A DNA stretch of 64,000 nt from the NCBI GenBank assembly GCA_027334565.1, contig DAHWUP010000004.1, forward strand, positions 15,138 to 79,137, written 5' to 3'. Every line of letters starts with the position of its first letter. The stretch's first letter is position 1. The DNA is from Candidatus Levyibacteriota bacterium. GTDB taxonomy: Bacteria > Patescibacteriota > Microgenomatia > Levybacterales > UBA12049. Below are positions 2,666 through 44,424 of this stretch, piece after piece. The position numbers were made by a program, and so were the translations under genes. The notes below the pieces were generated by a model. It saw only the letters and a program-made list of their open reading frames with translations, searched no databases and had not been told where the DNA came from.

Positions 2666-2668
2666 ATG

Positions 2669-8663: not shown

Positions 8664-9276
8664 TATTATCCCCGGAATTCTGGAAAAAGATCCGGCAGAA
8701 ATCGAAAAAAAATTAAAACTGATCAAACCTTTTTCAAACACAGTGCACATTGATGTAATCGACGGAAAATTTGCCGAAACGGCGACTTTTCAAGATCCGG
8801 ATTTTTTTAAAAAGTACACAAATGATTTTTTTATGGAGGTGCATTTGATGGTCGAAGATCCTGTTAATTATATTAAGCAATACGCTCAAGCGGGTTTTAA
8901 AAGATTTCTGGGACACATTGAAAAAATGAAGGACATAGACGAGTTTATTGCCGAAGGACAAATTTTAGGCGAGGTCGGAATTGCCATTGACAGTAAGACA
9001 GGTACATTGAATTTACCTTTGGACGACTTGGACGTGATTTTAATAATGGGTGTTAAGGCAGGGGGGTCGGGTCAAGAGTTCTTGCCGCAGGTGTTGGAAA
9101 AAATCGCCTCGGTAAGACAAAACCATCAAATTCCCATTGAAGTTGACGGCGGCATCAACGACAAAACCATTGTTGAAGCAAAAAAAGCCGGAGCCACCCG
9201 GTTTGTCACTACCAGTTATATTTTTGGTGCCAAGAACCCTGCCGAGGCTTTTCAAAATCTTACCTTGCTCGGCTAA
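8641..9276 (+). CDS. rpe: ribulose-phosphate 3-epimerase
   Basis: HIDVIDGKF, HLMV, VDGGIN motifs; 211 aa. Confidence 0.8.
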   Translation: MNKKIMHDIIPGILEKDPAEIEKKLKLIKPFSNTVHIDVIDGKFAETATFQDPDFFKKYTNDFFMEVHLMVEDPVNYIKQYAQAGFKRFLGHIEKMKDIDEFIAEGQILGEVGIAIDSKTGTLNLPLDDLDVILIMGVKAGGSGQEFLPQVLEKIASVRQNHQIPIEVDGGINDKTIVEAKKAGATRFVTTSYIFGAKNPAEAFQNLTLLG

Positions 9277-13855: not shown

Positions 13856-14878
13856 ATGGATATCCCGACCTATATCACGACCCTGTCGGTGCCGTTTTTC
13901 GGATTCAACTGGATAGACATTTTGATTCTGATTATCCTGGTGTTTTATGCGGTGGAAGGGTATTCGCTCGGATTTTTATTGGCGACGATTGATTTTATTT
14001 CGTTTGCCTTATCTTTTATTCTTGGCATCACTTTTTACGGCCGGGTAGCCTCGGTTTTGATGTCGACCGTCAAGATGATGCAGGGGTTCGCCAACGCAAT
14101 CGGGTTTTTTGTTGCCGCCGCCTTTTTTGAGATAATTCTTAACCTCGTTTTGAAACTGCTTACCGCAGGAATTCCATTTCTCGCTAAGGGGCCGCAAACG
14201 GCGAAGATGCGCAGAACAAATCAGTTGCTCGGAATTATCCCCGGCATTCTTTCGGGACTGGTACTGACCTCGTTTATTTTAAGCTTGATTATCGCCCTGC
14301 CGTTCTCGGTGTTTTTAAAACACTCCGTCAGTAATTCAAAAATAGGCAATGTTTTGGTCGAAAATACCCAGGTATTTTCGAAAAACTGGAACGACATCTT
14401 CGGTGGCGCGGTCAACGATACCCTGTCCTTCTTTACCATCGAACCGCAAAGCAATCAAATGGTTGACCTCCATTTTACCGTTTCCGACCCTTCGGTAGAC
14501 ACTCAGGCCGAACAGGAGATGCTCACGATGGTCAACAACGAACGCACCTCAAGAGGAATAGATCCGCTTACGCCATCAAGCGCCTTAACGGCGGTTGCCA
14601 GGGCGCATTGTACCGATATGTTTAAACGCGGATATTTTTCCCATTATACGCCCGAAGGCACTTCGCCATTTGACAGAATGTTGGCGGCGGGCATAAGCTT
14701 TAATTATGCCGGAGAAAACCTGGCACTTGCGCCCAACGTCAGTTTGGCGATGAACGGGCTGATGCAGAGCCCGGGACACAGAGCCAATATCCTTTCGACC
14801 AATTTTAAAAAGGTCGGAATCGGGGTGCTCGACGGCGGAGTATACGGCCAGATGTATTGCCAGGAGTTCACGGACTAA
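13856..14878 (+). CDS. CvpA-family membrane domain fused to a CAP/SCP (PR-1-like) domain
   Basis: N-terminal 4-TM CvpA-like region. C-terminal GYFSHYTPEG..ENLA..SPGHRANIL..FKKVGIGV matches CAP/SCP domains. Confidence 0.6.
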   Translation: MDIPTYITTLSVPFFGFNWIDILILIILVFYAVEGYSLGFLLATIDFISFALSFILGITFYGRVASVLMSTVKMMQGFANAIGFFVAAAFFEIILNLVLKLLTAGIPFLAKGPQTAKMRRTNQLLGIIPGILSGLVLTSFILSLIIALPFSVFLKHSVSNSKIGNVLVENTQVFSKNWNDIFGGAVNDTLSFFTIEPQSNQMVDLHFTVSDPSVDTQAEQEMLTMVNNERTSRGIDPLTPSSALTAVARAHCTDMFKRGYFSHYTPEGTSPFDRMLAAGISFNYAGENLALAPNVSLAMNGLMQSPGHRANILSTNFKKVGIGVLDGGVYGQMYCQEFTD

Positions 14879-19099: not shown

Positions 19100-19151
19100 T
19101 TGACACCATATGTCTAGTGTCCTATGATTTTTTTGGCGCTATATCTAGTGA
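19100..19151 (+). promoter_or_regulatory. sigma70-like promoter (TTGACA-N17-TATGAT) overlapped by two NrdR-box-like repeats
   Basis: TTGACA at 19100-19105 and TATGAT at 19123-19128. Two copies of TAT(G/A)TCTAGTG (19109-19120 and 19140-19151) are 31 bp apart, each about 12/16 to the NrdR box consensus acaCtAtATaTaGtgt. They lie upstream of nrdR-nrdJ. Confidence 0.45.
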
Positions 19152-19173
19152 TTTAAGGTCAAAAAGGTTTGTT

Positions 19174-19623
19174 ATGAAGTGTCCATATTGCGGAAACAAA
19201 GACACGGAAGTAGTAGAAACCCGGGACAGCGAAGATTTAGAAACAATCAGAAGAAGGCGCGAGTGTTTAAAGTGCGGGAAAAGATTTACTACTTACGAGC
19301 GGATAGAGAACGTTAACTTAATAGTTATTAAAAAAGACGGAAGGCGTGAACAATTCAACAGAGATAAATTAAGAGCAGGAATCCTAAGGAGTTGCGAAAA
19401 GACCAAAGTATCTCTTGAAGACATAGAAAAGATCCTAACGGAAATCGAGCGGGAATTAAGGAACGCCGATTCGGTGGAGGTCGAAAGCAAAAAGATCGGA
19501 CAACTGGTTTCTGCGAGGCTAAAAACACTGGATAAAGTAGCTTATATCAGGTTCTCAAGCGTCTTCAAAAGGTTTGTGGACGTTGAGGACTTTGAAAAAG
19601 AAGTTAAAAGACTAATTAAATAG
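19174..19623 (+). CDS. nrdR: transcriptional repressor NrdR
   Basis: MKCPYCG...CLKCGKRFTTYERIE zinc ribbon plus ATP-cone. Start taken at 19174, downstream of the promoter and NrdR boxes. Confidence 0.85.
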   Translation: MKCPYCGNKDTEVVETRDSEDLETIRRRRECLKCGKRFTTYERIENVNLIVIKKDGRREQFNRDKLRAGILRSCEKTKVSLEDIEKILTEIERELRNADSVEVESKKIGQLVSARLKTLDKVAYIRFSSVFKRFVDVEDFEKEVKRLIK

Positions 19624-19624
19624 T

Positions 19625-22054
19625 ATGAAATTGGACGGAATAAGGCAAAAGGTTTTTTTAGACAGATACAGCTTAAAAGACTCAAAAGGAAATCCCATGG
19701 AAAAAACTGCGGGTGAGATGTGGAGAAGGGTTGCCAGAGGAATCGCCAGCGTAGAAAAGCCCAAAGATCGTAAAAACTGGGAAAAGAAATTCTACGATGT
19801 GATGGAAGATTTTAAATTCTTACCCGGCGGAAGGATACTGGCCGGCGCAGGAACCGGCTTCGACGTTACTTATTATAATTGCTTCGTAATCCCCAATCCC
19901 CCCGACTCCAGAGGTGGAATAATGAATAACCTGACCCAGATGATCGAGATCATGGCTCACGGCGGCGGAGTCGGACTTAACCTTTCTTCTTTAAGACCCA
20001 GGGGAGCCAGGGTTAAAAAGGTCAATGGTTTTTCTTCCGGTCCCCTAAATTGGGCAGAACTTTATTCTCTGGCGACCAAAGACATAGTCCAGCAGGGAGG
20101 TTCAAGAAGGGGCGCTTTGATGCTAATGCTCCACGACTGGCACCCCGATATAGAAGAATTTATTACGGTAAAACAGGACCTTAGCAAAATTAACGGGGCC
20201 AACCTTTCGGTTTGCGTTTCCGACACTTTTATGAATGCCGTAAAACGCGACGAAGACTGGGATTTGGTTTTCCCCGACCTCAATGACAAAAGGTACGACA
20301 AGAAATGGAACGGAGATATTGACGAGTGGAAAAAACTGGGGGGAAAAACCGAAGTTAAAAAAACCGTTAAAGCACGATACCTTTGGGATTTGATTTGCAC
20401 CGCCGCTTGGAAATCGGCAGAACCGGGACTCCATTTCCTAGAAAGAAGTAACAAACGTTCAAACACCTGGTATTTTGAAAAATTGATTGCCACCAACCCC
20501 TGCGGAGAGCAGCCATTATCAGGCTGGGCGGTTTGCAATCTTGGTGCCATGAATCTGTCGGCGTATGTCAAAAACAGGAAATTTGATTATGTAAACTTTG
20601 CCAAAGACGTTCAAGTGGCGGTCAGGTTCCTGGATAACGTCATTGACGACACCCATTATTTCTATAAGGAAAATGAAAAGGTAGCCAAGGATATCAGAAG
20701 ACAAGGGTTGGGAATTATGGGTCTGGCGGATGCTTTGATTAAAATGGAAATCAAATATGGAAGCGATGAGTCGCTTAAGGTAATCGAGAAAATATTCAAA
20801 ACCTTAAGGGATAATGCCTATATTTCCTCTTCGGATATCGCGGCGGAAAAAGGATCGTTCCCCAAGTACAGCCAAGAAAAATACCTTAACGGCTGGTTTA
20901 TTAAAAGATTGCCGGAAGAGGTGAGGAAAAAAATCGCCAAACAGGGAATCAGAAACGCCGTGATTCTAACGATCGCTCCGACCGGTACGACCGGGCTCTT
21001 GGCGGGAGCTTCCTCGGGAATAGAACCGGTTTATGAATTCGAGTTTATCAGGCGTGACAGGCTTGGCGAACACCAAATGTACCATCCGCTTTTTGATGAA
21101 TGGAAAAAAGCTCATCCGAACGAACAAAAGCCAGACTATTTCGTTTCGGCAAACGACTTAACCCCCGAAAATCACGTCAAGGTTCAGGCGATCGCCCAAG
21201 AATATATTGATTCATCCATCTCCAAAACCGTCAACGCTCCTAAAACCCATACGGTTGAGGATGTCAAAAGACTATATGAAATGGCCCATGACATGGGTCT
21301 GAAGGGCATTACCTATATGCGCGACGGTTCAAGGGAGGGAGTACTGTCAAGAAAGGAAGATAAAAAAGAAGAACAAACAGTTATACCGCAAACCACGCTT
21401 CCGGTAATGCCGAGACCGGTAATGGTTGAGGGGGTTACTTATCAATCCGAAACCCCGGTCGGAAAAACCTTCATTACAATCAACCATAACGAGAACAACG
21501 AACCGTTCGAGGTATTTATTACCGTCGGAAAGTCGGGATCGGATGTTACCGCCATGGCGGATGCATTGGGTCGCATGATTTCGTTAAACTTAAGGCTTAA
21601 TGGCTCGCTTTCACCCAGAGAAAGAGTGAGGCAAATTGTCGCACAACTGATCGGTATCGGTGGGGCAAGGGCGGTTGGTTTTGGAGCGAACAAAGTGTTA
21701 TCGCTCCCGGACGCAGTTGCCAAAGTTTTGTCCAAGCACTTTGAGTTCAGGGTAAACGGAGTGGTCGAGGATAGGCCGAGAATCGTTAACACCGGTGGTA
21801 ACGGACATTCAAACGGCGCAACCACCGGGACCGTGGCCATAACCCACGCCCCGGTTCCAGCCGACCTGGACGCTCCGAATGAAGAAATAGTTAAAATCCA
21901 ACAATTGACGCTTCAAACGCCCCAAGGGACACTGTCTGCTACTGAAGGTACGGCAACGGGACTTTATGACATCTGCCCCGACTGTGGCGCGGCAAGCCTT
22001 GCATACGAAGAAGGCTGCAAAAAATGCTACTCCTGCGGTTATTCCGAGTGCTGA
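19625..22054 (+). CDS. nrdJ: class II (adenosylcobalamin-dependent) ribonucleotide reductase
   Basis: 809 aa. NPCGEQPL active-site motif and ATP-cone-less class II architecture. C-terminal CxxC..CxxC..C zinc ribbon. Confidence 0.85.
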   Translation: MKLDGIRQKVFLDRYSLKDSKGNPMEKTAGEMWRRVARGIASVEKPKDRKNWEKKFYDVMEDFKFLPGGRILAGAGTGFDVTYYNCFVIPNPPDSRGGIMNNLTQMIEIMAHGGGVGLNLSSLRPRGARVKKVNGFSSGPLNWAELYSLATKDIVQQGGSRRGALMLMLHDWHPDIEEFITVKQDLSKINGANLSVCVSDTFMNAVKRDEDWDLVFPDLNDKRYDKKWNGDIDEWKKLGGKTEVKKTVKARYLWDLICTAAWKSAEPGLHFLERSNKRSNTWYFEKLIATNPCGEQPLSGWAVCNLGAMNLSAYVKNRKFDYVNFAKDVQVAVRFLDNVIDDTHYFYKENEKVAKDIRRQGLGIMGLADALIKMEIKYGSDESLKVIEKIFKTLRDNAYISSSDIAAEKGSFPKYSQEKYLNGWFIKRLPEEVRKKIAKQGIRNAVILTIAPTGTTGLLAGASSGIEPVYEFEFIRRDRLGEHQMYHPLFDEWKKAHPNEQKPDYFVSANDLTPENHVKVQAIAQEYIDSSISKTVNAPKTHTVEDVKRLYEMAHDMGLKGITYMRDGSREGVLSRKEDKKEEQTVIPQTTLPVMPRPVMVEGVTYQSETPVGKTFITINHNENNEPFEVFITVGKSGSDVTAMADALGRMISLNLRLNGSLSPRERVRQIVAQLIGIGGARAVGFGANKVLSLPDAVAKVLSKHFEFRVNGVVEDRPRIVNTGGNGHSNGATTGTVAITHAPVPADLDAPNEEIVKIQQLTLQTPQGTLSATEGTATGLYDICPDCGAASLAYEEGCKKCYSCGYSEC

Positions 22055-22101: not shown

Positions 22102-22647
22102 ATGTCCATTTATACGAAATTTGGCGATAAAGGAAAGACAAGTTTATTTGCAGGAAGGGTCGTTTCCAAATCAAGCGTAAGGGTTAACACCTATGGGTCG
22201 CTGGACGAACTCAATAGTTATCTGGGGGTCATCTTATCCAAGATAAAAAACAAAAAGATTAGGCAAGAGTTAACACTGGTCCAAAACGATTTGTTTGAAA
22301 TAGGCGCATATCTTGCCAACCTTTCTTATAGCAAAGGACAGGCGCTTGATAAATATTTAGAAAAAAGGGTTTCGCAGTTTGAAAAAGAGATTGACACGTT
22401 AACGAACACAATGCCACCTCTTAAAAATTTCATTTTACCGGGAGGTTCCGAGACCGGCGCTAATTTGCATTTTTCCAGGACCTTAACCAGGAGGGCGGAA
22501 AGGCGCGTCGTCGAACTTTCGGAAAAAGAAAAAGTAAGCCCGAAGGTACTGATATACATGAACAGACTTTCGGACCTGCTTTTTACTTTTGCTAGATTTA
22601 TAAATAAAGAAAATAAAGTTAAAGAAATTATTTGGTCGTCACGATAG
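22102..22647 (+). CDS. ATP:cob(I)alamin adenosyltransferase, PduO/MMAB type
   Basis: MSIYTKFGDKGKTSL N-terminus and overall PduO-type pattern; 181 aa. Confidence 0.75.
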   Translation: MSIYTKFGDKGKTSLFAGRVVSKSSVRVNTYGSLDELNSYLGVILSKIKNKKIRQELTLVQNDLFEIGAYLANLSYSKGQALDKYLEKRVSQFEKEIDTLTNTMPPLKNFILPGGSETGANLHFSRTLTRRAERRVVELSEKEKVSPKVLIYMNRLSDLLFTFARFINKENKVKEIIWSSR

Positions 22648-22654
22648 AATAATT

Positions 22655-22779
22655 TCTTCGGGTGAAAGCCGGTGTAATCCCGGCGCTGTGCCGCAACTGT
22701 AAAGCCAGAGCCCCGTAAAAAATCTTCCGAGCAGAAGTATGTTTTTAATATACAACTCCTCGGAATTTGAGGAGTTTTT
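22655..22779 (+). promoter_or_regulatory. cobalamin-riboswitch-like leader with terminator/SD-sequestering expression platform
   Basis: GGGUGAAAGCC-GGUGUAAUCC-CGGCGCUGU-GCCGCAACUGUAA-AGCCAGAG matches the core of the cobalamin aptamer consensus (GGGAAnccGGUGnnAAnUCC..CnGnnCCCGCCACUGUaa..AGCCAG B12-box start). Downstream hairpin ACUCCUC-GGAAUUU-GAGGAGU plus U5 contains the SD (GAGGAG) 5 nt before the ATG at 22780. Confidence 0.45.
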
Positions 22780-23934
22780 ATGTATTTGGAAACATCAAGG
22801 CATTATGATTTTCAACAACCCGGGCATGAAACGCAGGGCTTACCCCGTTCGCCTCTTGCCTACGATCCGACCCTAGACTTTTCATATTATCATGCGCTTT
22901 CGGAAGGAAAACTCAATATAGGTAAGGATGACCTTGATGCATACATCAAGCGGCAATTGGTAACCAATTTAAGCGAAAGGTTTGATATGCCCCTAAGCGT
23001 TACCAACTATAAAATAAGAGACGGACAAATTTACGGAGAAAATACCGATTTGCCGTTTACGGAAATGATTAAGCGGGGAATAGACCACCGACAAAAATAC
23101 GGAAATCCCTTAGATTTCTCAAGAGAAGAAGCAGAGCTTACGGGATTTTTAAAAGTCCAGGCGGTATTGACAGACCCTAAAACTCCTTTGGGCACCGTAA
23201 TGATATCGGTTTCACCAAGAGGACAAGAGGGATCATCCTATCAACATAATTTTGTGGACGGGATGGAAGTAAAAGAGGATGAAACAGGCTCCAGGTTTAT
23301 TGAGTCAACCAGATACGGTTCGTCATTAACCTTGAGCGAATTTTCGGACAGGTTGAATCAACTAGGTGAAATGAACGCGTACGATGGAGCAAACGATGCT
23401 TATTTTCTTTCACACCCGTTACGGGTAAATGGAATTTCGAAACAACAAGTGCGCTCGTTATTTGCGAACGAAGACGGAAAAGTCACGGATGATGAATTTG
23501 ATTTTATCCTGCAGCAGTCGGCGCCTGTTTGGGAGCATTATCGCAAAACCATGGCCGATTTGGATCTTGAAAATGCACTACTTAGTTTTAACGCCGGCCT
23601 GAATATAGCGGATGAGGCGCTGAAAACTTATCGGGGGGGGAAAGGGACTGGTCTTAGAAGCGGTAACCTTAACGAAATAATTGATGTCTATGGCAGGATC
23701 CCGGTTAGACAGGTAATGGTAGGGTGCGGTTCTTCTTCGGGATTTGATATTCCAAACGGTCCGGTAAATGCGTTAAGGCAAAATTCGCCCTTCAGCGTTT
23801 CGGAATTTGGTAAATTAACCGATCGATATGGGGAAAGGTCGTTTGATTGTCCGCATTGTGGTTGGAAAAATTCCCGCCCCGAAAACCAGCTGGTTGAAAA
23901 ATGTAGCCATTGCGGCGGAAGCGTCAGATGCTGA
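22780..23934 (+). CDS. hypothetical soluble protein with C-terminal CxxC..CxxC zinc ribbon (riboswitch-associated)
   Basis: 384 aa; no TM segment; CPHCGWKNSRPENQLVEKCSHCGG at the C-terminus; no recognisable catalytic motif. Confidence 0.45.
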   Translation: MYLETSRHYDFQQPGHETQGLPRSPLAYDPTLDFSYYHALSEGKLNIGKDDLDAYIKRQLVTNLSERFDMPLSVTNYKIRDGQIYGENTDLPFTEMIKRGIDHRQKYGNPLDFSREEAELTGFLKVQAVLTDPKTPLGTVMISVSPRGQEGSSYQHNFVDGMEVKEDETGSRFIESTRYGSSLTLSEFSDRLNQLGEMNAYDGANDAYFLSHPLRVNGISKQQVRSLFANEDGKVTDDEFDFILQQSAPVWEHYRKTMADLDLENALLSFNAGLNIADEALKTYRGGKGTGLRSGNLNEIIDVYGRIPVRQVMVGCGSSSGFDIPNGPVNALRQNSPFSVSEFGKLTDRYGERSFDCPHCGWKNSRPENQLVEKCSHCGGSVRC

Positions 23935-23991
23935 CCGGTGATGTTTTGAAGGTGAATTTTAATTGTCCTTTAAGTGTAATAATGGTATCAT

Positions 23992-24507
23992 ATGCGTATG
24001 GATAACACTGCCCAGACCAATCAATCGAATATTCAGGAAAGTTCTAATATTCAACCGAGCCAGTCTTCCAAGACCCAGCAGCCGGTGCCACAGCAACCGG
24101 CTACGCCTGTTGCATCTTCCAACAAAGAATTGGAAAAAAGCAGCGCATTTTCGGAAATAGTCAAACCTTCGGAGGAGGAAGTAAAGGTTGAGGAGGAATT
24201 GAAAAATGTCGGCGTTGTTGTTAATTCCGATAAACCGAAGCTGGATAAGGTTCATGAGCAAATCGGGGTTAAGGCCTCCGCCGAAAGCGTTTCGGTTAGC
24301 ACGTCTCCCCCGGCGAATATTACATTGCCTTTAAGCGAAGAGGAAGCGGACAGTGTCTTGAAAACCAAACAATCAAAATTCCATCTGCAGGAAAACGTGG
24401 GCGAGTTTGCGGGAGAATATACCGAGGACTCACTCCCTTTTTTGGCTGCGCTGGTTGTAAAAGTATTCAAGGAAATGCATAAGAAAATATTCAGAAGAAA
24501 AAAATAA
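23992..24507 (+). CDS. hypothetical low-complexity (Q/S/E-rich) protein with C-terminal amphipathic/basic segment
   Basis: 171 aa; ends 2 nt before the start of the downstream ATPase gene, suggesting translational coupling. Confidence 0.35.
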   Translation: MRMDNTAQTNQSNIQESSNIQPSQSSKTQQPVPQQPATPVASSNKELEKSSAFSEIVKPSEEEVKVEEELKNVGVVVNSDKPKLDKVHEQIGVKASAESVSVSTSPPANITLPLSEEEADSVLKTKQSKFHLQENVGEFAGEYTEDSLPFLAALVVKVFKEMHKKIFRRKK

Positions 24508-24508
24508 A

Positions 24509-26881
24509 ATGGGCAGTTCATATATTTATTCCAATATTAACAATCTATTGACGGCGCTGGTTTTAGCGGTGGTTATTCTTGCGGTTACGGCGGGATTGAT
24601 ACTGGGAGGATTATATCTTTTTCTCATCTGGTATAAAAACAGGGACAGGGAACAGCAGTCGTTGGATTCTACTTTGCTTCAAGTTTTGGTTCCGCGGGAC
24701 AACGAAGTAAAAATCGACGCAGCAGAACAATTATTTTCAAGCCTAACCGGAGTCAGAACTCACGGAATGTTCGCATTTTTAAAAAATCCCCCACATATTT
24801 CTTTTGAAATCGTCGGGATGCCCGAAGATATCAGGTTCTATATATATACTCCCAATAAATACCGTGATATTGTAGAAAAACAAATCAACGCTTCCTACCC
24901 CGATGCGGAAATAAGGGTGGTTGATGAGAAGCAGGCAAAGGAAGGGTTCATCATCGGAAACGAATATAATATTTTTAGTAAGGAGGGAAAAGTCGCTTTT
25001 GCTTCACTCAAGCTCAAGGATTCTAACTATAAACCGCTTAAGATGTACAAGGATTTTGCGGTCGATCCGATGGCTTCAATGACCTCGGTTCTGGCGAAAA
25101 TGAGTCAGGGGGAGGGCGCAGCGATTCAGATTTTGGTATCAGGAGCCGATTCTAAATGGAGCAAATCGGGAAGAAGCTATATTGCTACCACCAAGAAAAG
25201 CGAATCCAACCCCGAAACCGCCAAGTATTCATCCGATCCCAAAGAGCTTGAGGGAATTGAGAATAAGATTTCAAAACCGGGTTTTTATTCCGTGATAAGA
25301 ATCGTAGTTTCCTCAATGTCTCAGGAAGCGGCCAGTGCACACCTTGAAAATATATTAACGGCCTTTACCCAGTTTGACGGCACCAACTCTTTAACTAAAA
25401 ACAAACATTGGCTTAAAGGGGGATTCATCCAGGACTTTGTTTACAGGTATTTTCCTACCCGTGGCAACCTTTCGGTCTTAACCAGCGAAGAGTTGGCCGG
25501 CGTTTTCCATCTGCCTAACAAAAGCGTTACCACACCGCACATTGAGTGGATCAATGCCAAACGGGCGCCGGCCCCGGCACAAATTCCATCATCCGGGCTT
25601 TATCTTGGAATGAGCACCTTTAGGGGGATTGCCAAACCGGTGTATGTCCAGGAAGACGATAGAAGAAGACATATGTATATTATCGGTAAAACTGGTGTCG
25701 GAAAGTCGGAATTATTAAAACAAATGATCGTTCAGGATGTCAATGAAGGCAAGGGCATCGGTGTAATAGACCCGCACGGGGATCTGATCGAGGATATCTT
25801 AAAACTGATCCCGCCGCAGCGGGCCGAAGATGTAATTTTGTTCGACCCCTCGGATACCGAAAGACCGGCTGGTTTAAATATGCTCGAGGCGCAGACAGAA
25901 CAGGAGAAACATTATATCGTATCTTCGATCGTTGGATTAATGTACAAACTGTATGACCCCAATAAAACCGGGATTATCGGGCCGAGGTTTGAGCACGCGA
26001 TCAGAAATGCCATGCTTACCGTGATGTACGAACCGGGTAGCACTTTTATCGAGGTGGTCAGGGCTTTAACCGATGCATCCTTTGTCCAGGAACTTTTACC
26101 TAAAGTCACCGATCCGATCGTCAGACGCTACTGGACCGATCAGATTGCGCAAACCAGCGATTTTCATAAATCCGAAGTTTTAGATTATATTGTTTCGAAA
26201 TTCGGTCGTTTCGTCACGAATAAAATGATGCGAAACATCATCGGTCAGTCCAAATCCGCTTTTGACTTTAGAAAAGTAATGGATGAGGGAAAAATACTTT
26301 TGGTCAATCTCTCCAAAGGGAAAATCGGTGAGGAGAACTCAAGTTTTTTGGGTTTGGTGATGGTACCGAAAATTCTGGTTGCAGCCATGAGCAGACAGGA
26401 CGTTCCACAGGAACAAAGGAGGGATTTTTATCTATATGTCGACGAGTTCCAGAATTTTGCTACCCCCGATTTCGCGCAGATCCTTTCGGAAGCCAGGAAA
26501 TACCGTCTTAATCTGATTGTCGCCAACCAGTTCATCGGGCAAATGGAGGAGGAGGTCAAAAATGCCATCTTTGGGAATGTCGGGACGATCATGTCGTTTA
26601 GGGTGGGCGTCACCGATGCAAACTACCTTCAGCATGAGTTCCAGCCGACCTTTACCGAAGCGGATCTTATCAATGTCGATGTCTATAATGCTTTTGTCAA
26701 AACCATTGTCAACAACGAACCGGTCACCCCGTTTTCTATCGATACCACCAAAGATATGACCAAGGAAAAAGGGATGGAGAACCCAAGGGTAGCGGAACTG
26801 ATCAGGGAGCTTTCAAGGTTAAAATACGGAAAAGATGTCGTCAACCTCGAGGCGCAGATCGCACAAAGAGCAAGACTTTAA
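24509..26881 (+). CDS. membrane-anchored VirB4/TraC-like (AAA_10-type) P-loop ATPase
   Basis: N-terminal TM hairpin. Walker A YIIGKTGVGKSELL followed by GVIDPHGDL (the VirB4/TraC IDPKGEY-like motif). Walker B YVDEFQNF and LIVANQ motif. 790 aa. Confidence 0.45.
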   Translation: MGSSYIYSNINNLLTALVLAVVILAVTAGLILGGLYLFLIWYKNRDREQQSLDSTLLQVLVPRDNEVKIDAAEQLFSSLTGVRTHGMFAFLKNPPHISFEIVGMPEDIRFYIYTPNKYRDIVEKQINASYPDAEIRVVDEKQAKEGFIIGNEYNIFSKEGKVAFASLKLKDSNYKPLKMYKDFAVDPMASMTSVLAKMSQGEGAAIQILVSGADSKWSKSGRSYIATTKKSESNPETAKYSSDPKELEGIENKISKPGFYSVIRIVVSSMSQEAASAHLENILTAFTQFDGTNSLTKNKHWLKGGFIQDFVYRYFPTRGNLSVLTSEELAGVFHLPNKSVTTPHIEWINAKRAPAPAQIPSSGLYLGMSTFRGIAKPVYVQEDDRRRHMYIIGKTGVGKSELLKQMIVQDVNEGKGIGVIDPHGDLIEDILKLIPPQRAEDVILFDPSDTERPAGLNMLEAQTEQEKHYIVSSIVGLMYKLYDPNKTGIIGPRFEHAIRNAMLTVMYEPGSTFIEVVRALTDASFVQELLPKVTDPIVRRYWTDQIAQTSDFHKSEVLDYIVSKFGRFVTNKMMRNIIGQSKSAFDFRKVMDEGKILLVNLSKGKIGEENSSFLGLVMVPKILVAAMSRQDVPQEQRRDFYLYVDEFQNFATPDFAQILSEARKYRLNLIVANQFIGQMEEEVKNAIFGNVGTIMSFRVGVTDANYLQHEFQPTFTEADLINVDVYNAFVKTIVNNEPVTPFSIDTTKDMTKEKGMENPRVAELIRELSRLKYGKDVVNLEAQIAQRARL

Positions 26882-26908
26882 GTTTCCGCTTTGCTATAAT
26901 CATGGCAA

Positions 26909-26980
26909 GCGTCCATAGCTCAGCGGTAGAGCGCTACTCTTATAAAGTAGATGTCCTTGGTCCGAATCCAAGTGGACGCA
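26909..26980 (+). tRNA. tRNA-Ile (anticodon UAU)
   Basis: Hand-fold: GCGTCCA acceptor, GCTC/GAGC D stem, CTACT-CTTATAA-AGTAG anticodon arm, CTTGG-TCCGAAT-CCAAG T-arm, discriminator A. Confidence 0.7.
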
Positions 26981-27185
26981 CTTTCGGTTAATGTTATTAG
27001 ACAAAGCTATCGGTTTAAAAAAGACTTTTGCGCACCGGTCATTTTCCGGTTCGCGGATTTCATAAGATTATAACGTAAATTTCCTTCTAGGAAGAACATT
27101 TCAGTTCCTCCATGAAAATGGTCCCACAAAGCGAATCCTTCAGGATTTTTAAGTTTTATAACAGTTTTTTAACCGAGGAACGAAT

Positions 27186-28046
27186 TTACAATTCGGTCAG
27201 CGTGGAGGTTTCTTTGCCCCGGTCGGGAACATACTGAAGGTATCTTTCGGTGGTAGAAAGCCTTTTATGACCCAAAACCTTGGACAAAACTACCAAGGAG
27301 ACGCCGTGTTTTAAGTGGTGGGCAACAAAGGTGTGTCTTAAATCGTTAACTTTAGCGTCTTTGATTTCCGCCAGCCTAAAGTATCTTTCTACCGCGGTCC
27401 TGATGTTTCTTATCAAAAACGGTTTTCCGCTTTTTGTAACGAAGACGTGATCGTCCGAAACTTTTGGTCTTATTTCCAGATACCTGTCAAGTGCGCTCTG
27501 GGCACTTTTGTTTAACGGGACATTTCTTTCTTCATGTTTTTCAAAGGGGGAGATATGCAGAGAATCTTTTAATATATCCGAAAGCCTAAGATTTGCCAGT
27601 TCCCCGATCCTGATTCCGGTTTGAAGTAAAAGCTCGATTACCGCGAACATCCGCGAATCATTTCTGGCAGCATCCCTTAAAGCCCTGTATTCGGTAGGCG
27701 TCAAAATTCTGGGCGGTGCAAGTTGGTACTTAGGGTGCGCAACCAAAAGTGAAGGATCATCCGTGATATATTCGTTGACTTTTAAAAATCTGTAAAACGT
27801 TCTGGTCGAGTTGATTTTTCTGGAGACAGACTTTGGGGTATAACCTTCCTTGCCTAATTTGGCCAAAAAGGCTTGGATATCTTCGGTCGACACCTCATGG
27901 ATATTGTTTTTCTTTAATTCTTCCAAAAAAGTAATCAGCTGGTCGACATCCTTACCATAAGCAACCACCGTCGAAGCCGACTTTTGGTTTTGCTTTAAAA
28001 AATTCTTAAATTCCTCATGGGCATTTCTTAATGTCACCGGTTTCAT
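27186..28046 (-). CDS. tyrosine recombinase (XerC/XerD / phage-integrase family)
   Basis: C-terminal LRHTFVAHHL..GHKRLSTTERY (R..H..R..Y catalytic tetrad); N-terminal SAM-like core-binding domain; 286 aa. Confidence 0.8.
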   Translation of the reverse strand: MKPVTLRNAHEEFKNFLKQNQKSASTVVAYGKDVDQLITFLEELKKNNIHEVSTEDIQAFLAKLGKEGYTPKSVSRKINSTRTFYRFLKVNEYITDDPSLLVAHPKYQLAPPRILTPTEYRALRDAARNDSRMFAVIELLLQTGIRIGELANLRLSDILKDSLHISPFEKHEERNVPLNKSAQSALDRYLEIRPKVSDDHVFVTKSGKPFLIRNIRTAVERYFRLAEIKDAKVNDLRHTFVAHHLKHGVSLVVLSKVLGHKRLSTTERYLQYVPDRGKETSTLTEL

Positions 28047-28169: not shown

Positions 28170-28508
28170 ATGAAAAAGCTGGGATTTGTATTATTGGTTA
28201 TAGTACTTTTGCTGATCGTCAACGGTTTGGTTCATTCCATCTTCGATTTGTGGCAAAAACAAAGCCTATTGACTCAAGCGCAACAAGAGCTAAACGCACA
28301 AAAGCTTAAAAACACCAAGTTAAAAGCAGAACTTTCTTACGTACAAAGCCCTCAGTTTATTAACCAGACGGCCCGAAACGAACTTTTCCTGTCAAAGCCC
28401 GGAGAACAGCAAGTGATAATTGAGAATCAGACACCCAATTCAAGTAGGCCTGCGGCAACCGTGGATAATCGTCCGAATTGGCAAAAGTGGCTTCAGTTAT
28501 TTTTCTAA
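28170..28508 (+). CDS. FtsL/DivIC (septum formation initiator)-like small membrane protein
   Basis: N-terminal TM helix followed by coiled coil (QAQQELNAQKLKNTKLKAELSYVQ); 112 aa. Confidence 0.5.
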   Translation: MKKLGFVLLVIVLLLIVNGLVHSIFDLWQKQSLLTQAQQELNAQKLKNTKLKAELSYVQSPQFINQTARNELFLSKPGEQQVIIENQTPNSSRPAATVDNRPNWQKWLQLFF

Positions 28509-28538
28509 AGTACTAGGGGCGAGATTCAAATTGTTCAG

Positions 28539-28610
28539 TACCAACGGCTGGATTCGAACCAGCGACTTGACGCTTATGAAACGTCCGCTCTACCCCTGAG
28601 CTACGTTGGC
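28539..28610 (-). tRNA. tRNA-Met/Ile2-type (anticodon CAU), G1-U72 wobble
   Basis: Hand-fold: GCCAACG acceptor pairing CGTTGGT, GCTC/GAGC D stem, GACGT-TTCATAA-GCGTC anticodon arm, GCTGG-TTCGAAT-CCAGC T-arm, discriminator A. Confidence 0.75.
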
Positions 28611-29288
28611 GTAATCAATTTGGGATAATCCTTCTAATAACCCCATAATTTTACCATAAATCCTTGAAGGCTGCTGGACCCGGACTATAAGCGTACCATA
28701 ATACTCGTTATAATTGGCATATATTTTTTTATTCTGTGCTTTTCTGAATACAGTTTTATTAAAGCGATTTATTGGAATTCCGGTTAACTCCGACCAATAC
28801 CTTTTAATAATAGTATCCCGTTTCTTGTGGATGAGATTAATGCCGACATAACAATATATATCTTTATAATTAATATTTAGGCATTTCTGAAGCCACAAAA
28901 TGAAAAATTTTACTAATTTTGGATCAGAATTACACAGTTCTATTTTTCTTCCTTTTTTGCTTCCTTCTCCCCAATATAAAGCAATACCTGCTATTAACAT
29001 TTCTCTGTTTGTAAGCTTACCGATTTCTTTTATCCCCTGATTCTTATTTTTTTCAAAATTTTTTAACCATCTCTCCTTTTGTAATAATGCACTTTTTAAT
29101 CTGCCGCGCTCTGACCCTAATATGCTTGATTTTCTTAGGTGCTCTAATTGTTCAACCGTTAAAATAATATCCCTTACCCAAATACTTGCTGAGCTTTTAG
29201 ATACCCCGAGTTTTAAAGCAATTTCCTTTACGCTTTTGCCCCGTTTTCGCATCTGACGCGCCTTAATTCTCAATGAATATTTTGCCAT
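28590..29288 (-). CDS. HTH-domain protein with LAGLIDADG-like motif (putative homing endonuclease), paralog of 307-960
   Basis: 232 aa. HTH-like KEIALKLGVSKSSASIWVRD. LIAGIALYWGEGSKKG (LAGLIDADG-like). CNSDPKL and YWSELTGIP blocks shared with the 307-960 ORF. Stop codon lies 21 nt inside the 5' end of tRNA-Met. Adjacent to a group I intron-like RNA. Confidence 0.45.
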   Translation of the reverse strand: MAKYSLRIKARQMRKRGKSVKEIALKLGVSKSSASIWVRDIILTVEQLEHLRKSSILGSERGRLKSALLQKERWLKNFEKNKNQGIKEIGKLTNREMLIAGIALYWGEGSKKGRKIELCNSDPKLVKFFILWLQKCLNINYKDIYCYVGINLIHKKRDTIIKRYWSELTGIPINRFNKTVFRKAQNKKIYANYNEYYGTLIVRVQQPSRIYGKIMGLLEGLSQIDYANVAQG

Positions 29289-29469
29289 ATGAACGAACAG
29301 TAATATTAGTTAATATTTATATTATAACGTCGGTTTGTTTAATTTGTCAAAGCTGTTTTCATTGCTTATTGTTCTTAATTTTGTTAAAATATCAATACAC
29401 GCGGGGTAGTGTACAGTGCACATGAGGCTTAATAATGGGCCGTTTTAATAGTAATATTAGAATAGAATC

Positions 29470-29700
29470 TGGCTATATCGGTGAACCCCTAGCGTTTAGG
29501 GTAACACCGAGGGAAGTCGAAATCTAAAATTGAGATCCCGTAGAGACTACACGCCAGACATCCTGAGTTTATCTAAGGATGATGATATAGTCCGACACTC
29601 TAGGTAACTGGAGAAACAGGAGGCATAATCTCATAGGCTAGGCGCAACTCCTAGCCCCGCAACATCGAAAATTTAGCCTCAGATTTGACATTTTTCTTCG
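29470..29700 (+). ncRNA. group I intron-like ribozyme core (approximate boundaries)
   Basis: R element UAGAGACUACA (29541-29551) and S element GAUAUAGUCC (29584-29593), nearly identical to the group I consensus (..CAGAGACUACA / AAGAUAUAGUCC) and to Tetrahymena (GAUAUAGUCGGAC). P8-like hairpin CAUCCU..AGGAUG between them. GGGAAG / UCCCG P4-like pairing upstream. P9-like hairpin GGCUAGG-CGCAACU-CCUAGCC downstream. Confidence 0.5.
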
Positions 29701-35234: not shown

Positions 35235-37118
35235 TTGTGTTATACTTTCCAAGTTATGCCGGCCATTAAGAAACCCAAAAAAATAAAACAGTTTAAAGTC
35301 AAGATGAATTTTTCTTGGAAGAATCTCTTGATCTATGCCTTCCTGATCATATTTACCGGGTTTGTTTTTTTCGGTATAAGTAGCCCAAATGCAATAAATG
35401 CTCCTACTGTCAAAACGGTTCCCCTGTCACAGCTTATACGTGACGTTAAGGACGGTAAAGTATCTACCCTGAACGTCTATTCGGACAAAATTGACGCGGT
35501 GGAAAAATCCGTCACGCTTGAAAGCACTAAAGAAACCAACGCCGACGTCTATCAATTGTTCAAAAACGCCGGCGTTTCGCTTGGTAAAACCAACGTGGTG
35601 ATCAAAGATGACACGACCTTAAATAATTGGATCAGTCTGCTGTTCTCCTCGATATTGCCGATCATTTTGATGGTCGCCTTTTTCTGGTTTATCTTCAGGC
35701 AGGCAAGAGGCGCACAAGATAGCATTTTTTCTTTCGGCAAATCGTCGGCAAGGGTTTTCAACAAAGATAATCCCCAGGTCACGTTTACGGATGTCGCCGG
35801 GGTCGATGAAGCGAAGCAGGAACTGACCGAGGTGGTAGATTTCTTGAAAAACCCGGGAAAATACAAAGCTATGGGTGCAAGAACCCCCAAAGGGGTTTTA
35901 ATGGTAGGCCCTTCCGGTACGGGCAAAACACTTCTGGCAAGGGCGACTGCCGGGGAAGCCGGAGTGCCCTTTTTTTCCATGGCGGGAAGCGAATTCATGG
36001 AGATGCTGGTCGGCGTAGGTGCGTCGAGGGTCAGGGATTTGTTCCAAACGGCGAAAAAAGCTCAACCGGCAATAATTTTTATCGACGAAGTTGATGCCAT
36101 CGGAAGACAGCGCGGTGTAGGTTTTATGGGCGGGCACGACGAAAGAGAGCAAACCTTAAATCAGATCCTGGTGGAGATGGACGGTTTTTCTCCGACTGAA
36201 CAATTAGTTGTGATCGCGGCAACCAATCGTCCCGATGTATTGGACCCGGCGCTAATTAGGCCCGGAAGATTTGACAGGCGGGTAGTTTTGGAGCTTCCAG
36301 ATGTAAACGGTAGAAAAAATATTTTGGCGATCCATGCACGGGGTAAGCCTTTTGCCCAAAACGTAGACTGGGAAAAAGTTGCAAAGAGAACGGTCGGTTT
36401 CTCGGGAGCGGATTTGGAAAACATGTTGAACGAGGCTGCAATTTTAGCCGCGCGCTTGGGTAAAAAATCTATCGACATGTCCGATTTGGAAGAGGCGGCC
36501 ACTAAGGTAAAACTGGGCCCGGAGAAAAAACGTCTACAGTCCGAGGAAGACAGAAGAATGACCGCCTATCATGAAGCCGGACACGCACTGGTTTCCTGGT
36601 TTATGCCTCACATGGACCCGGTTCACCGCATCTCAATCGTTTCAAGAGGAATGTCTCTGGGACATACGATGATGGAGCCGATGGATAGGCTGCATGAGAC
36701 CAAGACTCATCTTCTTGAGCAGATTTCGGTGATGCTTGGAGGAAGAGCGGCGGAAAGTCTGATATTTAAAGAAATGACCACCGGAGCGTCGGATGATATC
36801 GCCAAAGCAACCGAAGTTGCCAGAACAATGGTAGTAGAGTATGGGATGAGCGATCTGGGACCGATAAACTTTGATACCCAATCACATATGCCTTATGAGC
36901 AGGTTACGATTTCTCCGGATATGGCCGCCAAGGTGGACGAACAGGTAAAAAAGATCACAGACGAGGCTTATAAAAATGCGATCGAGGTACTTAGAAAACT
37001 TAAGGAAAAACTCGATCTTTTGGCGGAAGAGTTATTGAAAAAAGAGACCATCGAGTCGGAGGAGTTCGAAAGAATAGTCGGCCCCAAAAAACCGGCACTT
37101 GCAACCGTAAGTGTATAA
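35235..37118 (+). CDS. ftsH: ATP-dependent zinc metalloprotease FtsH
   Basis: GPSGTGKT Walker A, AAA SRH, HEAGHAL zinc motif, two N-terminal TM helices. Confidence 0.9.
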
Positions 37119-43193: not shown

Positions 43194-44424
43194 GCTTCTT
43201 TGTTATAATGAATTAGTGGAATTAAAGTCATTGTTAAAAGTAAAAATACCCCCGTTAAAACCGTTCTTAAAAAATCATTTGATCGAACTTCTGATCATAG
43301 TTTTTCTGTCCATCGCGGTTATTGCTTTAAGCGGTTTATTTATTTATAACTTAAATCAGTCTAAGCTTGTAAAAGCGGCTTTATCCGAAAGGCTGACTGC
43401 AGCAAACAGGCAGTACTCCGATTTAAAGAACCAAAATCAGTACAAGATTAACCAGGCGCTTAAAAAGAACATCGGCGACATACAATCTTCTTATAAAACT
43501 GTTGTTGATCTATACCAAAAAATTCAGGACCTAAAGGCACAAAAACAAGATACAAGTACGCTCGAAGTGGAATTCACCCAAAGTTTAAGTTACGTTTCCC
43601 AGCTTAATTATGCTTCGGCCTCGTCCCGGCTGGCAGTTTTGGCGGCGGATATAAAGAAAATGCAGGACGCCTTGGCTTTGGCTCAGGCGCAAAATGCAGC
43701 GGCCCAAAACGTTACGCAGAGCAATACTCCTCCCGCAAACGGATTTTCGGTGCAATCCGTCTCCACCCCAAACGGTAACTTTACGGTTTATATCATCGCC
43801 GCCGATTTAAATACCACCAGAGTGGTCGTCGATACGGCCTCCGGCGGGGACTGTTCAAATAACTGTCCGGTCCTGCCATTATCGGATTATATTGCAAGAA
43901 GCGGCGCGTTCGCAGGTATCAACGGAACGTATTTTTGCCCTGCCGAATATCCCAGCTGTGCGGGAAAAACCGGTTCGTTCGACCTTTTGGTGATGAACAA
44001 AAACAAGGTATATTTCAATTCCGCAAACAATGTCTACAGCACGAATCCGGCTGTGATATTTTACGGCAATACGGTAAGGTTTGTTTCCCAGGCCTTGCAG
44101 TGGGGCAGAGATACCGGCGTAGATGCGGTAATCTCGAATTATCCGCTGTTGGTTTACAACGGAAACGTCGTTTATTCGGGCGGTGGGGACCCGAAATTTG
44201 CGCCAAAATCCGTCAGAACATTTATTGCCAATAAAGGCAGTATGGTTTACATCGGAATTGTGTTCAATGCCTCGATGCAGGATAGCGCGAATGTGCTAAA
44301 GGCTCTGGGAATGGACAATGCCATGAATTTGGATCAGGGCGGTTCAACCGCGCTTTGGTACGGGGGTTACAAGGCGGGCCCCGGCAGGAACATACCTAAC
44401 GCCCTTCTGTTTGTCAGGAAATAG
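43153..44424 (+). CDS. phosphodiester glycosidase (NAGPA/DUF2233)-like protein with N-terminal TM and coiled coil
   Basis: C-terminal GINGTYF..NLDQGGSTALWYGG pattern. Confidence 0.45.
   Translation: MRFILNLKKIRKFKLLCYNELVELKSLLKVKIPPLKPFLKNHLIELLIIVFLSIAVIALSGLFIYNLNQSKLVKAALSERLTAANRQYSDLKNQNQYKINQALKKNIGDIQSSYKTVVDLYQKIQDLKAQKQDTSTLEVEFTQSLSYVSQLNYASASSRLAVLAADIKKMQDALALAQAQNAAAQNVTQSNTPPANGFSVQSVSTPNGNFTVYIIAADLNTTRVVVDTASGGDCSNNCPVLPLSDYIARSGAFAGINGTYFCPAEYPSCAGKTGSFDLLVMNKNKVYFNSANNVYSTNPAVIFYGNTVRFVSQALQWGRDTGVDAVISNYPLLVYNGNVVYSGGGDPKFAPKSVRTFIANKGSMVYIGIVFNASMQDSANVLKALGMDNAMNLDQGGSTALWYGGYKAGPGRNIPNALLFVRK

Follow-up and report, generated by a model that had tools for sequence, protein, structure and literature searches.

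The stretch analyzed here (the window) comprises 64,000 nucleotides of a Candidatus Levyibacteriota genome (assembly GCA_027334565.1, contig DAHWUP010000004.1) and carries, between positions 22780 and 26881, three adjacent genes that encode a protein of an unannotated family (p1), a small protein (p2), and a P-loop ATPase. A reading made from the letters of the DNA alone, called below the sequence-only reading, had singled out these three plus-strand open reading frames (22780-23934, 23992-24507, and 24509-26881, for 384, 171, and 790 amino acids), and all three proved to be conserved in Levyibacteria. It had also noted a riboswitch-like leader ahead of the first gene and had treated the trio as one unit, possibly the residue of a conjugative element. 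The overall explanation favored here, held with moderate confidence, instead includes two independent transcription units lying in a conserved chromosomal neighborhood of the Levyibacteria (Microgenomatia, Patescibacteria): a cobalamin riboswitch with p1, and p2 with the ATPase. The features of the region are the following.

19117-19623: NrdR, upstream neighbor of NrdJ.
19625-22054, plus strand: NrdJ, a class II (B12-dependent) ribonucleotide reductase with a C-terminal Cys-rich tail (Pfam Ribonuc_red_lgC 1e-122, Ribonuc_red_lgN, TSCPD).
22102-22647, plus strand: PduO-type ATP:cob(I)alamin adenosyltransferase (Pfam Cob_adeno_trans 3e-57).
22644-22725, plus strand: cobalamin riboswitch aptamer of the AdoCbl-II / class II type, with the B12 box CTGTGCCGCAAC (RF01689 match at 22646-22721).
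22723-22738, plus strand: conserved element TCTTCCGAGCAGAAGT, with complementarity to the 5′ arm of the hairpin before p1; candidate anti-terminator or anti-sequestor.
22754-22779, plus strand: hairpin AACTCCTC-GGAATTT-GAGGAGTT (to 22776) and a T-run abutting the ATG of p1 (terminator scan).
22780-23934, plus strand: p1, 384 amino acids, predicted cytoplasmic, unannotated family (open reading frame).
23963-23991, plus strand: putative promoter of the p2-ATPase operon, with a -35-like TTGTCC, a 17-nt spacer, and an extended -10, TGGTATCAT (promoter scan).
23998-24507, plus strand: p2, 169 amino acids from the ATG at 23998 (171 from 23992; open reading frame and alignment).
24509-26881, plus strand: 790-amino acid, predicted membrane-anchored P-loop ATPase (Pfam, NCBIfam, and PDB matches).
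26892-26900, plus strand: extended -10 TGCTATAAT, before tRNA-Ile.
26909-26981, plus strand: tRNA-Ile(UAU) (ARAGORN, Rfam).
27186-28046, minus strand: XerC/XerD-like tyrosine recombinase (Pfam Phage_integrase and SAM-like N domain).
28170-28508, plus strand: DivIC (Pfam DivIC).

The leader ahead of p1 is a genuine cobalamin riboswitch, as established by both profile match and covariation. The RF01689 (AdoCbl-II) match, located exactly between PduO and p1, scores 38.6 bits, above the gathering score of 36.5 (Rfam clan CL00101), which gives the leader seen in the sequence-only reading a definite class, and the same model reaches 40.5-55.2 bits in the related loci L003, L007, L009, L010, L011, L099, and L105. 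With a covariance model of our own, for which six aptamers were used, 83 copies were recovered from 85 sources. In the resulting alignment, which was fitted to that model, 91.9% of the cells are paired, and cells with double changes number 328, as compared with 102 in shuffles and at most 90 when the partners are slid; both sides change in 13 of the 16 pairs of the aptamer helices, with a covariation score of 0.566 versus 0.135 (shuffled) and no more than 0.129 (slid partners). The riboswitch class is already known. With class II cobalamin riboswitches (RF01689, env8-type), the window element shares an aptamer of about 80 nt with no long peripheral extension, the B12 box, a position ahead of B12 uptake or salvage genes, and an expression platform that involves the ribosome-binding site. 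It differs in controlling a protein family without known function. Kissing-loop control of the env8 type was considered and rejected, since no covariation links the L5 loop to the loops of the platform. A search of the literature on cobalamin riboswitches in the candidate phyla radiation (CPR) or Patescibacteria found nothing relevant.

The link between this riboswitch and p1 is constant across the Levyibacteria. Presence of p1, called with an iterated profile, was established in 63 Levyibacteria loci; the riboswitch lies no more than 200 nt upstream of p1 in 37 of them and at the head of the same-strand operon (riboswitch-[DUF4430-DUF6580]-PduO-p1) in another 20, while in the remaining 6 the upstream region is cut by the contig end. 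A cobalamin riboswitch, whether adjacent or at the operon head, precedes p1 in all 57 evaluable loci. In several loci, including L011, L022, L024, L040, L042, L044, L063, and L115, the stop codon of PduO overlaps the start of p1. A second riboswitch occurs in 14 loci (L028, L029, L033, L050, L054, L060, L064, L068, L073, L076, L077, L080, L083, and L089), and in nearly all of these it stands immediately ahead of p1 or of a divergent gene resembling p1. In such double-riboswitch loci the riboswitch ahead of DUF4430/DUF6580/PduO usually has a form of about 80 nt, and the one ahead of p1 a form of 92-101 nt in which an additional hairpin follows the B12 box; the two forms of one locus may differ in corrinoid selectivity.

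Three genomic settings of p1 can be distinguished. In setting A, found in most Levyibacteria and in the window, the order is NrdJ-PduO, riboswitch-p1, and p2-ATPase. Setting B is a second contig set of 19 metagenome loci (L096-L114), found with P0017/P0018 and 35-50% identical to the query P0017. Here a VirB2-like pilin array, a 251-amino acid protein, and a surface protein (1,513 amino acids in L094) are followed by riboswitch-p1 and by a 529-amino acid polytopic membrane protein that is VirB6-like by topology only; next come a 1,100-amino acid protein on the opposite strand, a TraC-like protein, and VirB4, after which PrgI follows in L094. No NrdJ, PduO, or DUF8128-containing ATPase was found within 10 kb in setting B. 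Of its 19 loci, 16 carry the B12 box; a riboswitch at the Rfam gathering level occurs in 6 of the 11 scanned and a match to our own model in 14 of 18, all of these riboswitch matches falling just upstream of p1. Setting C is locus L115, where riboswitch-PduO-p1 gives way to unrelated genes, without p2 or the ATPase; a riboswitch upstream of p1 was found both there and in L116. Across these settings the riboswitch-p1 cassette is the constant unit, with B12 genes adjoining it in A and C and genes of type IV secretion system (T4SS) families in A and B. Where the NrdJ/PduO cluster is absent from Levyibacteria loci (L027, L034, L035, L041, and L052), p1 is absent as well.

A riboswitch-controlled gene pair, DUF4430-DUF6580, lies between NrdJ and PduO in L007 (6374-7457), L010 (4705-5941), and some 30 other loci and is absent from the window. 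Together, DUF4430 and the membrane protein DUF6580 likely form the corrinoid uptake pair of these genomes; DUF4430 is reportedly named in a paper on vertebrate B12-binding proteins. The idea that p1 simply substitutes for this pair was rejected because the two co-occur in about 25 loci. All 8 loci that have B12 genes and lack p1 carry the pair. In L005, a second adenosyltransferase-type gene (CobA/CobO/BtuR family, 324 amino acids; 9146-10120, minus strand) lies between p1 and p2.

The region 3′ of the aptamer offers a plausible switch. The 3′ arm of the hairpin before p1 contains the Shine-Dalgarno sequence GAGGAG (22769-22774), its fold energy is -15.6 kcal/mol, and in appearance it combines a terminator with a ribosome-binding-site sequestor. 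The element TCTTCCGAGCAGAAGT is kept across loci of two contig sets, and the full-length minimum-energy fold pairs it with CUCCUCGGA, a pairing that would suit an anti-terminator. An equal platform follows 35 of 38 p1-proximal riboswitches and is used in setting B as well: the element UUCCGAGCAGAAG, then a hairpin ACUCCUCGGA...GAGGAGU, five to eight U, and the ATG. Both alternative structures turn up in thermodynamic folds. According to the mechanism proposed here, two mutually exclusive structures would compete, one being the anti-terminator pairing of UUCCGAGCAGAAG with CUCCUCGGAA and the other the hairpin that buries the Shine-Dalgarno sequence together with its U-run. Binding of a corrinoid would let the hairpin form and thereby stop transcription, hide the ribosome-binding site, or both; p1 would then be synthesized solely under B12 scarcity. 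The OFF direction is assigned by analogy, because almost all cobalamin riboswitches work that way, and the riboswitch family together with the combined terminator/Shine-Dalgarno hairpin points to an OFF switch that acts on termination and ribosome access.

The protein under this control belongs to a family that is itself new here, as are its invariable B12 control and its T4SS-locus setting, none of which was found in the annotation libraries or the literature searched. A single-sequence search returned 19 homologues of p1, and a profile search of 1.84 billion representative proteins returned 684 representative clusters, 329 of them with E < 1e-30; a further database search with a 30-sequence profile added only two more proteins. 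No match was found in Pfam, NCBIfam, PADLOC, or PHROG, apart from weak zinc-ribbon similarity at the C terminus, and the PDB likewise holds no relative by sequence beyond a weak zinc-ribbon. The zinc-ribbon-like end that the sequence-only reading had described is indeed there, in the form CPHCG...CSHCG...C, a four-Cys ribbon plus a terminal Cys, and even very divergent proteins in the p1 slot of other loci still end in a CxxC...CxxC ribbon. Among 30 diverse members, the conserved cysteines are C316, which is invariant and sits in the glycine-rich loop TGCGSSGG, C357, C360, C375, C378, and the terminal C384; other conserved positions are E66, R115, A118, S145, Y154, F158, P213, G305, and G317. 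The AlphaFold2 (AF2) model of p1 has a predicted local distance difference test score (pLDDT) of 81.8 and a predicted template modeling score (pTM) of 0.72, and no significant fold match to it was found in the PDB or BFVD. In the model, a helical region follows the core residues (about 70-180), whose strand-strand-helices-strand-strand-strand order suggests a resemblance to PAS-like ligand-binding domains; a conserved polar pocket is also predicted, and the conserved motif SPFSVSEFG falls in a disordered linker. The sequence contains no hydrophobic segment.

The C-terminal cysteines invite comparison with NrdJ. By eye only, a Cys-ribbon plus terminal Cys can be seen to end both NrdJ (21970-22054, ICPDCG...GCKKCYSCGYSEC) and p1 (23840-23934, CPHCG...CSHCGGSVRC). 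The C-terminal Cys tails of class II reductases shuttle reducing equivalents, and the conserved cysteines and NrdJ-like tail of p1 are compatible with thiol or electron-transfer chemistry. CblC/MMACHC and PduS are corrinoid-processing partners of adenosyltransferases, and p1 would share with them a proposed role, being likewise cytoplasmic, encoded with PduO, and co-regulated with genes of B12 uptake; this likeness is one of analogy, not homology, as p1 has no sequence or fold similarity to them and no recognized flavin, nitroreductase-like, or Fe-S motif. Two other identities for p1 were tried and rejected. It has no HUH-type histidine cluster that would mark a relaxase, its single His not being conserved, and it lacks the DxHxxG...SxL...GG motif of a canonical B12-binding domain, the His of its "HNF" not being conserved.

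The second unit begins in the spacer between p1 and p2. In 74 of 82 loci, the p2 ATG has an extended -10 element, TGNTANNNT, 6-9 nt ahead of it, as compared with a background of 1.44 per kb for this motif, and in many cases the -35-like TTAATTGTC is present too. The start of p2 ("MDD/MDN...") is conserved in 74 of 82 loci and corresponds in the window to the ATG at 23998 ("MDNTAQ"), so that p2 most likely starts there rather than at 23992, to judge from the alignment. The window -10 ends 6 nt before this ATG, and because of this spacing the p2-ATPase mRNA would be leaderless or nearly so. The same element occurs 4-9 nt before the ATG of about 10 other window genes and 8 nt before tRNA-Ile, an arrangement from which the near-leaderless form appears to be the normal promoter type of this organism; leaderless or near-leaderless transcripts seem common in this genome. 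Examples of genes preceded by TGNTANNNT are 6344-8146, 11632-13797, 44414-44974, and 50925-52781 on the minus strand and 13856-14878 and 35256-37118 on the plus strand.

Gene content follows the same division. The set p2-ATPase-recombinase-DivIC is kept in L034, L041, and L052 without NrdJ, PduO, p1, or the riboswitch, behind unrelated upstream genes (ComM-like, P-type ATPase, and RuvAB); p1 occurs without p2-ATPase in L115 and in L096-L114; and in L005 a minus-strand gene separates p1 from p2. The sequence-only reading had itself named a promoter between the first and second genes as grounds for giving up the trio, and because a conserved promoter is found there the trio as a single unit is not supported, in keeping with the separate occurrence of its parts. 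By these comparisons p2-ATPase is a transcription unit separate from p1, in which the extended -10 of the spacer would drive a leaderless p2-ATPase transcript. Within the unit, the p2 stop and the ATPase ATG are 1 nt apart (TAA-A-ATG), not 2 as had been counted, and translation of the two genes may be coupled across this gap. The position of p2 directly before the ATPase is invariable and was seen in about 70 loci. The earlier description of p2 as a disordered, Q/S/E-rich protein holds for its N-terminal half, which is of low complexity, rich in Q, S, P, and E, and variable between species; the C-terminal half is conserved and ends in an amphipathic basic helix. In L014 (6389-9340), p2 and the ATPase form a single frame of 983 amino acids, either a natural fusion, which would support joint function, or an assembly error.

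The ATPase has all of the motifs that had been listed for it, with Walker A (GKTGVGKS) at 393, IDPHGDL at 420, YLYVDE/DEFQNF at 641-650, and ANQ at 672. This Walker-type set is not diagnostic because it is common to the whole VirB4/VirD4/FtsK/HerA clade, and the profile searches do not bear out the VirB4/TraC (AAA_10) identity that the sequence-only reading had drawn from it. The matches are instead to coupling proteins: Pfam TrwB_AAD_bind (1.8e-9, 37.4 bits against a cut-off of 20.5, residues 383-698), T4SS-DNA_transf (5e-7, 29.3 bits, cut-off 20.1), and TraG-D_C (5e-6, 27.0 bits, cut-off 22), with TrwB (1e9r, 1gl6) and DotL as the best PDB matches. The nucleotide-binding domain resembles that of TrwB/VirD4 and carries an all-alpha insert. 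No VirB4-family Pfam model (AAA_10, CagE_TrbE_VirB, TraC_F_IV, P-loop_TraG) matched at E up to 0.1, NCBIfam VirB4_plasma gave 18.9 bits against a cut-off of 590 and covered the P-loop alone, and no VirB4 chain appeared among the PDB matches at E up to 1. As a positive control, the Patescibacteria VirB4 of L094 scores 1e-28 with P-loop_TraG and 1e-11 with AAA_10; in BLAST, it is similar to the window ATPase only around Walker A. The VirB4/TraC/TrbE ATPases thus share with the window ATPase a similar length, a layout of N-domain and P-loop domain, and the Walker motifs, but the window protein lacks any match to their Pfam families. Matches to other branches of the superfamily are short or below threshold: FtsK_SpoIIIE (PF01580) 17.5 bits against 24, at residues 373-408 only; DUF87 (PF01935) 28.7 bits against 23.2, confined to residues 378-436; and NCBIfam HerA 17.2 bits against 970. 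The PADLOC HerA models reach about 2e-5 and mad8 2e-15; a role as part of a defence system was rejected, the PADLOC mad8/HerA match being only partial and no defence genes being neighbors. The protein also falls below the curated NCBIfam coupling-protein equivalogs SXT_TraD (51.9 versus 366 bits), the CD1115 family (42 versus 250), and TOL TraD (35.8 versus 648). The ATPase is, by these profile matches, TrwB/VirD4-like (coupling-protein-like) and not VirB4/TraC-like.

Type IV coupling proteins (T4CPs; TrwB of R388, VirD4, TraD/TraG, DotL) share with the window protein a membrane-anchored P-loop ATPase with Walker A followed by (I/V)DP(H/N)GD, a Walker B of the form hhhhDE(F/L), and a Q-containing sensor. 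Where T4CPs usually have two N-terminal hydrophobic segments, the window ATPase has one, a stretch of about 29 residues (approximately 13-41), which would fit one membrane helix better than the hairpin previously assigned to it. Between this anchor and the nucleotide-binding domain, it has an extra cytoplasmic domain of about 310 amino acids, PF26449 (DUF8128), according to precomputed annotations of homologues. It further differs in that no relaxase or T4SS genes are nearby and in being a single-copy core gene in conserved synteny. An AF2 model of the ATPase, from a low-diversity alignment of 13 sequences, was unusable (pLDDT 47). The picture favored here is of an NTP-driven translocase, held in the membrane by its anchor and probably hexameric, that belongs to the T4SS coupling-protein type and has an additional cytoplasmic domain on its N-terminal side. 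Bacillus phage proteins of phrog_5156 resemble it over the full length, N-terminal domain included (2e-88; 20-24% identity over 73-91% of the protein); the members (phage G gp156, 0305phi8-36 ORF201, and SPO1-like phages) are phage-encoded, with no p2-like gene noted. In Bacillus phage G (L092, 90859-93336), the neighbor gp155 is annotated VirB-like, and in phage YungSlug (L093, 127312-129882), membrane proteins and a peptidoglycan metallopeptidase precede the ATPase homologue.

As a family, the ATPase is not new because the group is already in the literature and a Pfam DUF exists for its domain. Patescibacteria have 5,713 VirD4-type T4CP homologues in 2,918 genomes, about two per genome, of which only 148 are near virB4; nearly all lie far from it, a possible case of exaptation (Quinonero-Coronel et al. 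2025, PMC12102498). The window ATPase appears to be one of these orphan homologues, with which it shares a chromosomal location away from virB4. PMC12102498 gives no account of the DUF8128 domain, the p2 partner, the leaderless operon, or the site beside a B12 cluster and Xer-like recombinase. The literature also places virB4 loci of Microgenomatia close to dnaA.

The ATPase is a core gene, not the remnant of a mobile element. Database searching gave more than 7,000 matches, the top 120 at 77-100% identity, and a scan of one genome per species found relatives in at least 533 species; the 80 loci kept for comparison, at 68-89% identity, are almost all labeled Levyibacteria or Patescibacteria. 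The block NrdR-NrdJ-(DUF4430-DUF6580)-PduO-p1-p2-ATPase-tRNA-Xer-like recombinase-DivIC recurs in about 80 species-level genomes, flanked in related loci by GAPDH, PGK, cytidylate kinase, and Mur ligases. NrdJ is found at the equivalent position in 57 related loci, PduO in 72, and the recombinase in 60, and related loci also carry a tRNA at the tRNA-Ile position. Median identities of the related-locus proteins to those of the window are 77% for the recombinase, 72% for the ATPase, 68% for NrdJ, 54% for PduO, 45% for DivIC, 31% for p2, and 30% for p1. The earlier observation that no T4SS gene is nearby was confirmed throughout the window, both by Pfam searches of the ten largest or unknown open reading frames and by tblastn, the queries being nine proteins from an authentic T4SS locus of Patescibacteria, and no VirB3, VirB6, VirB8, or pilin gene accompanies the ATPase in the window or in the roughly 80 syntenic loci.

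These data bear directly on the proposal that a conjugative or integrative element, inserted at tRNA-Ile beside its integrase, decayed to leave the trio. Such an element might leave behind an ATPase of a T4SS family adjoining a tRNA gene and a tyrosine recombinase, as seen here, but the same gene order with housekeeping flanks persists in about 80 species, the window has no relaxase, VirB4, VirB6, or pilin gene, the G+C content of the trio (0.42-0.45) is that of the remainder of the window, and few genes of the block are as conserved as the ATPase and the Xer-like recombinase, so that this origin is exceedingly improbable. The other thought offered in the sequence-only reading, a stand-alone chromosomal membrane ATPase, is supported, with the qualification that the protein is of the T4SS coupling-protein type. 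The ATPase, the tRNA, the Xer-like recombinase, and DivIC adjoin one another in about 60 species, those without the B12 cluster among them, and this might alternatively mean that the ATPase and p2 form a housekeeping DNA translocase, an FtsK analogue that works with the recombinase and DivIC in segregation or dimer resolution. The high conservation of ATPase and recombinase (median identities of 72% and 77%) would fit such a role, as would membrane anchoring and membership in the FtsK/HerA/T4CP superfamily; FtsK reportedly appears in papers on the saccharibacterium TM7x. Against it, the ATPase and recombinase genes are convergent and so not co-transcribed, the FtsK_SpoIIIE profile stays below its cut-off and covers the P-loop only (17.5 versus 24 bits), no gamma-domain-like region was detected in the ATPase, and all of the synteny comes from one order-level clade, which together leave the proposal with little probability.

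What p1 does can be approached from its regulation and neighbors. To our knowledge, Patescibacteria are unable to make B12, and many depend on a B12-dependent ribonucleotide reductase. The universal B12 control of p1, its frequent translational coupling with PduO, and its absence where the NrdJ/PduO cluster is absent all argue for a corrinoid-salvage role, and judging from these associations p1 most likely acts in salvage for the B12-dependent NrdJ under B12 shortage. It would most likely handle incoming corrinoid together with PduO, by binding, reduction, or dealkylation through its cysteines. Several observations weigh against this account and against the two-unit scheme of which it is part. 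p1 shows no similarity to known corrinoid-binding or -processing families in Pfam, NCBIfam, PDB, or fold searches, and from the profile and fold searches no biochemical or structural homology backs any specific activity for it. It evolves much faster (median identity 30%) than PduO (54%) or NrdJ (68%) and is missing from about 13 loci that keep both of those genes, behavior that would be unusual for a core salvage enzyme. In L096-L114, it sits among T4SS genes with no B12 gene within 10 kb; because of these neighbors and of the T4SS-type ATPase next to it in Levyibacteria, p1 may be tied functionally to T4SS machinery. The promoter and leaderless start of p2, for their part, are drawn from comparison of loci, and no terminator was found after p1, so that read-through into p2-ATPase is possible.

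Such a tie could take the form of one B12-responsive T4SS module, in which p1 would be a substrate, effector, or adaptor produced under B12 starvation, p2 an adaptor or chaperone, and the ATPase would feed p1 to a T4SS encoded elsewhere or receive cargo, the episymbiont thereby taking corrinoid from its host. The T4SS-family neighbors of p1 in two arrangements (the T4CP-like ATPase, and the pilin array, VirB6-like, TraC-like, and VirB4 genes of L096-L114), the rapid evolution of p1 and p2, which change faster than any other gene of the block (often the case for host-interaction proteins), and the conserved p1 motif in a disordered C-terminal linker are all consistent with such a module. In conjugative systems the T4CP gene often adjoins the gene of its substrate, the relaxase (PMC12102498), and the Patescibacteria T4SS is essential for epibiotic growth, with cargo unknown (PMC12857230). 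The module is nevertheless judged unlikely, for p2-ATPase has its own promoter and persists unaltered in loci lacking p1 and every B12 gene, p1 next to PduO persists without the ATPase in L115, the gene after p1 in L096-L114 also seems to be preceded by a separate promoter-like element, and the two T4SS contexts provide no more than two independent associations. Another version, also doubtful, would make the riboswitch-p1 cassette the B12-sensing input of T4SS-based acquisition: starved of B12, the episymbiont would produce p1, a Cys-rich protein of new fold, which would dock to or be moved by T4SS machinery to obtain host corrinoid, or deoxynucleotides or DNA as a B12-sparing substitute. Its partners would be the coupling-protein-like ATPase in Levyibacteria and the VirB4/VirB6-like complex in the second contig set. 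The earlier guess of cofactor uptake in an episymbiont has some backing in the B12 control of p1 everywhere and in setting B, and may come closer to the truth than the main interpretation of the sequence-only reading.

A further alternative, less probable again, is that p1 serves as a B12-independent back-up for deoxynucleotide supply (e.g., salvage of host DNA or deoxynucleosides), switched on when NrdJ is without its cofactor. The regulatory logic has parallels in the B12 riboswitches that repress metE or nrdDG/nrdEF elsewhere, and the OFF-type B12 control stands beside NrdJ, the only visible B12-dependent enzyme; moreover, zinc-ribbons are common nucleic acid-binding elements, and DNA-translocase-type neighbors occur in both contexts. 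However, p1 is often co-transcribed and translationally coupled with PduO, a gene of B12 utilization, and searches of p1 revealed no kinase, nuclease, or phosphorylase motif or fold and no P-loop.

Some other features of the window and related loci lie outside these questions. A group I intron (RF00028, 95.4 bits; 29420-29614, plus strand) adjoins the gene of a 232-amino acid helix-turn-helix protein (28590-29288, minus strand), with tRNA-Met (28538-28610, minus strand) in the same area, and a group I intron match is also found downstream of DivIC in L001 and L009. A tmRNA gene (RF00023, 100.5 bits) is located at 2666-3031 on the minus strand. The NrdJ frames of L018 (427-4005), L019 (449-3907), and L036 (409-3822) are about 1,140-1,190 amino acids long, as compared with the usual 810 or so, which suggests an intein or other insertion.

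For annotation, the outcome is that a false lead is removed: the ATPase is a core, very highly conserved, coupling-protein-like protein that appears to have a small partner of its own and to be expressed from a leaderless operon. Time and again, genes of unknown role controlled by riboswitches have pointed the way to new transporters and enzymes, and p1 is such a gene, with a regulatory link that is very clean, holding at every evaluable locus and in two genomic contexts, often by a riboswitch of its own. Its repeated position beside T4SS-family genes points to a testable link between cofactor starvation and a secretion system needed for epibiotic growth. If the T4SS-based acquisition reading were true, it would supply the first cargo and function for the essential T4SS of Patescibacteria.

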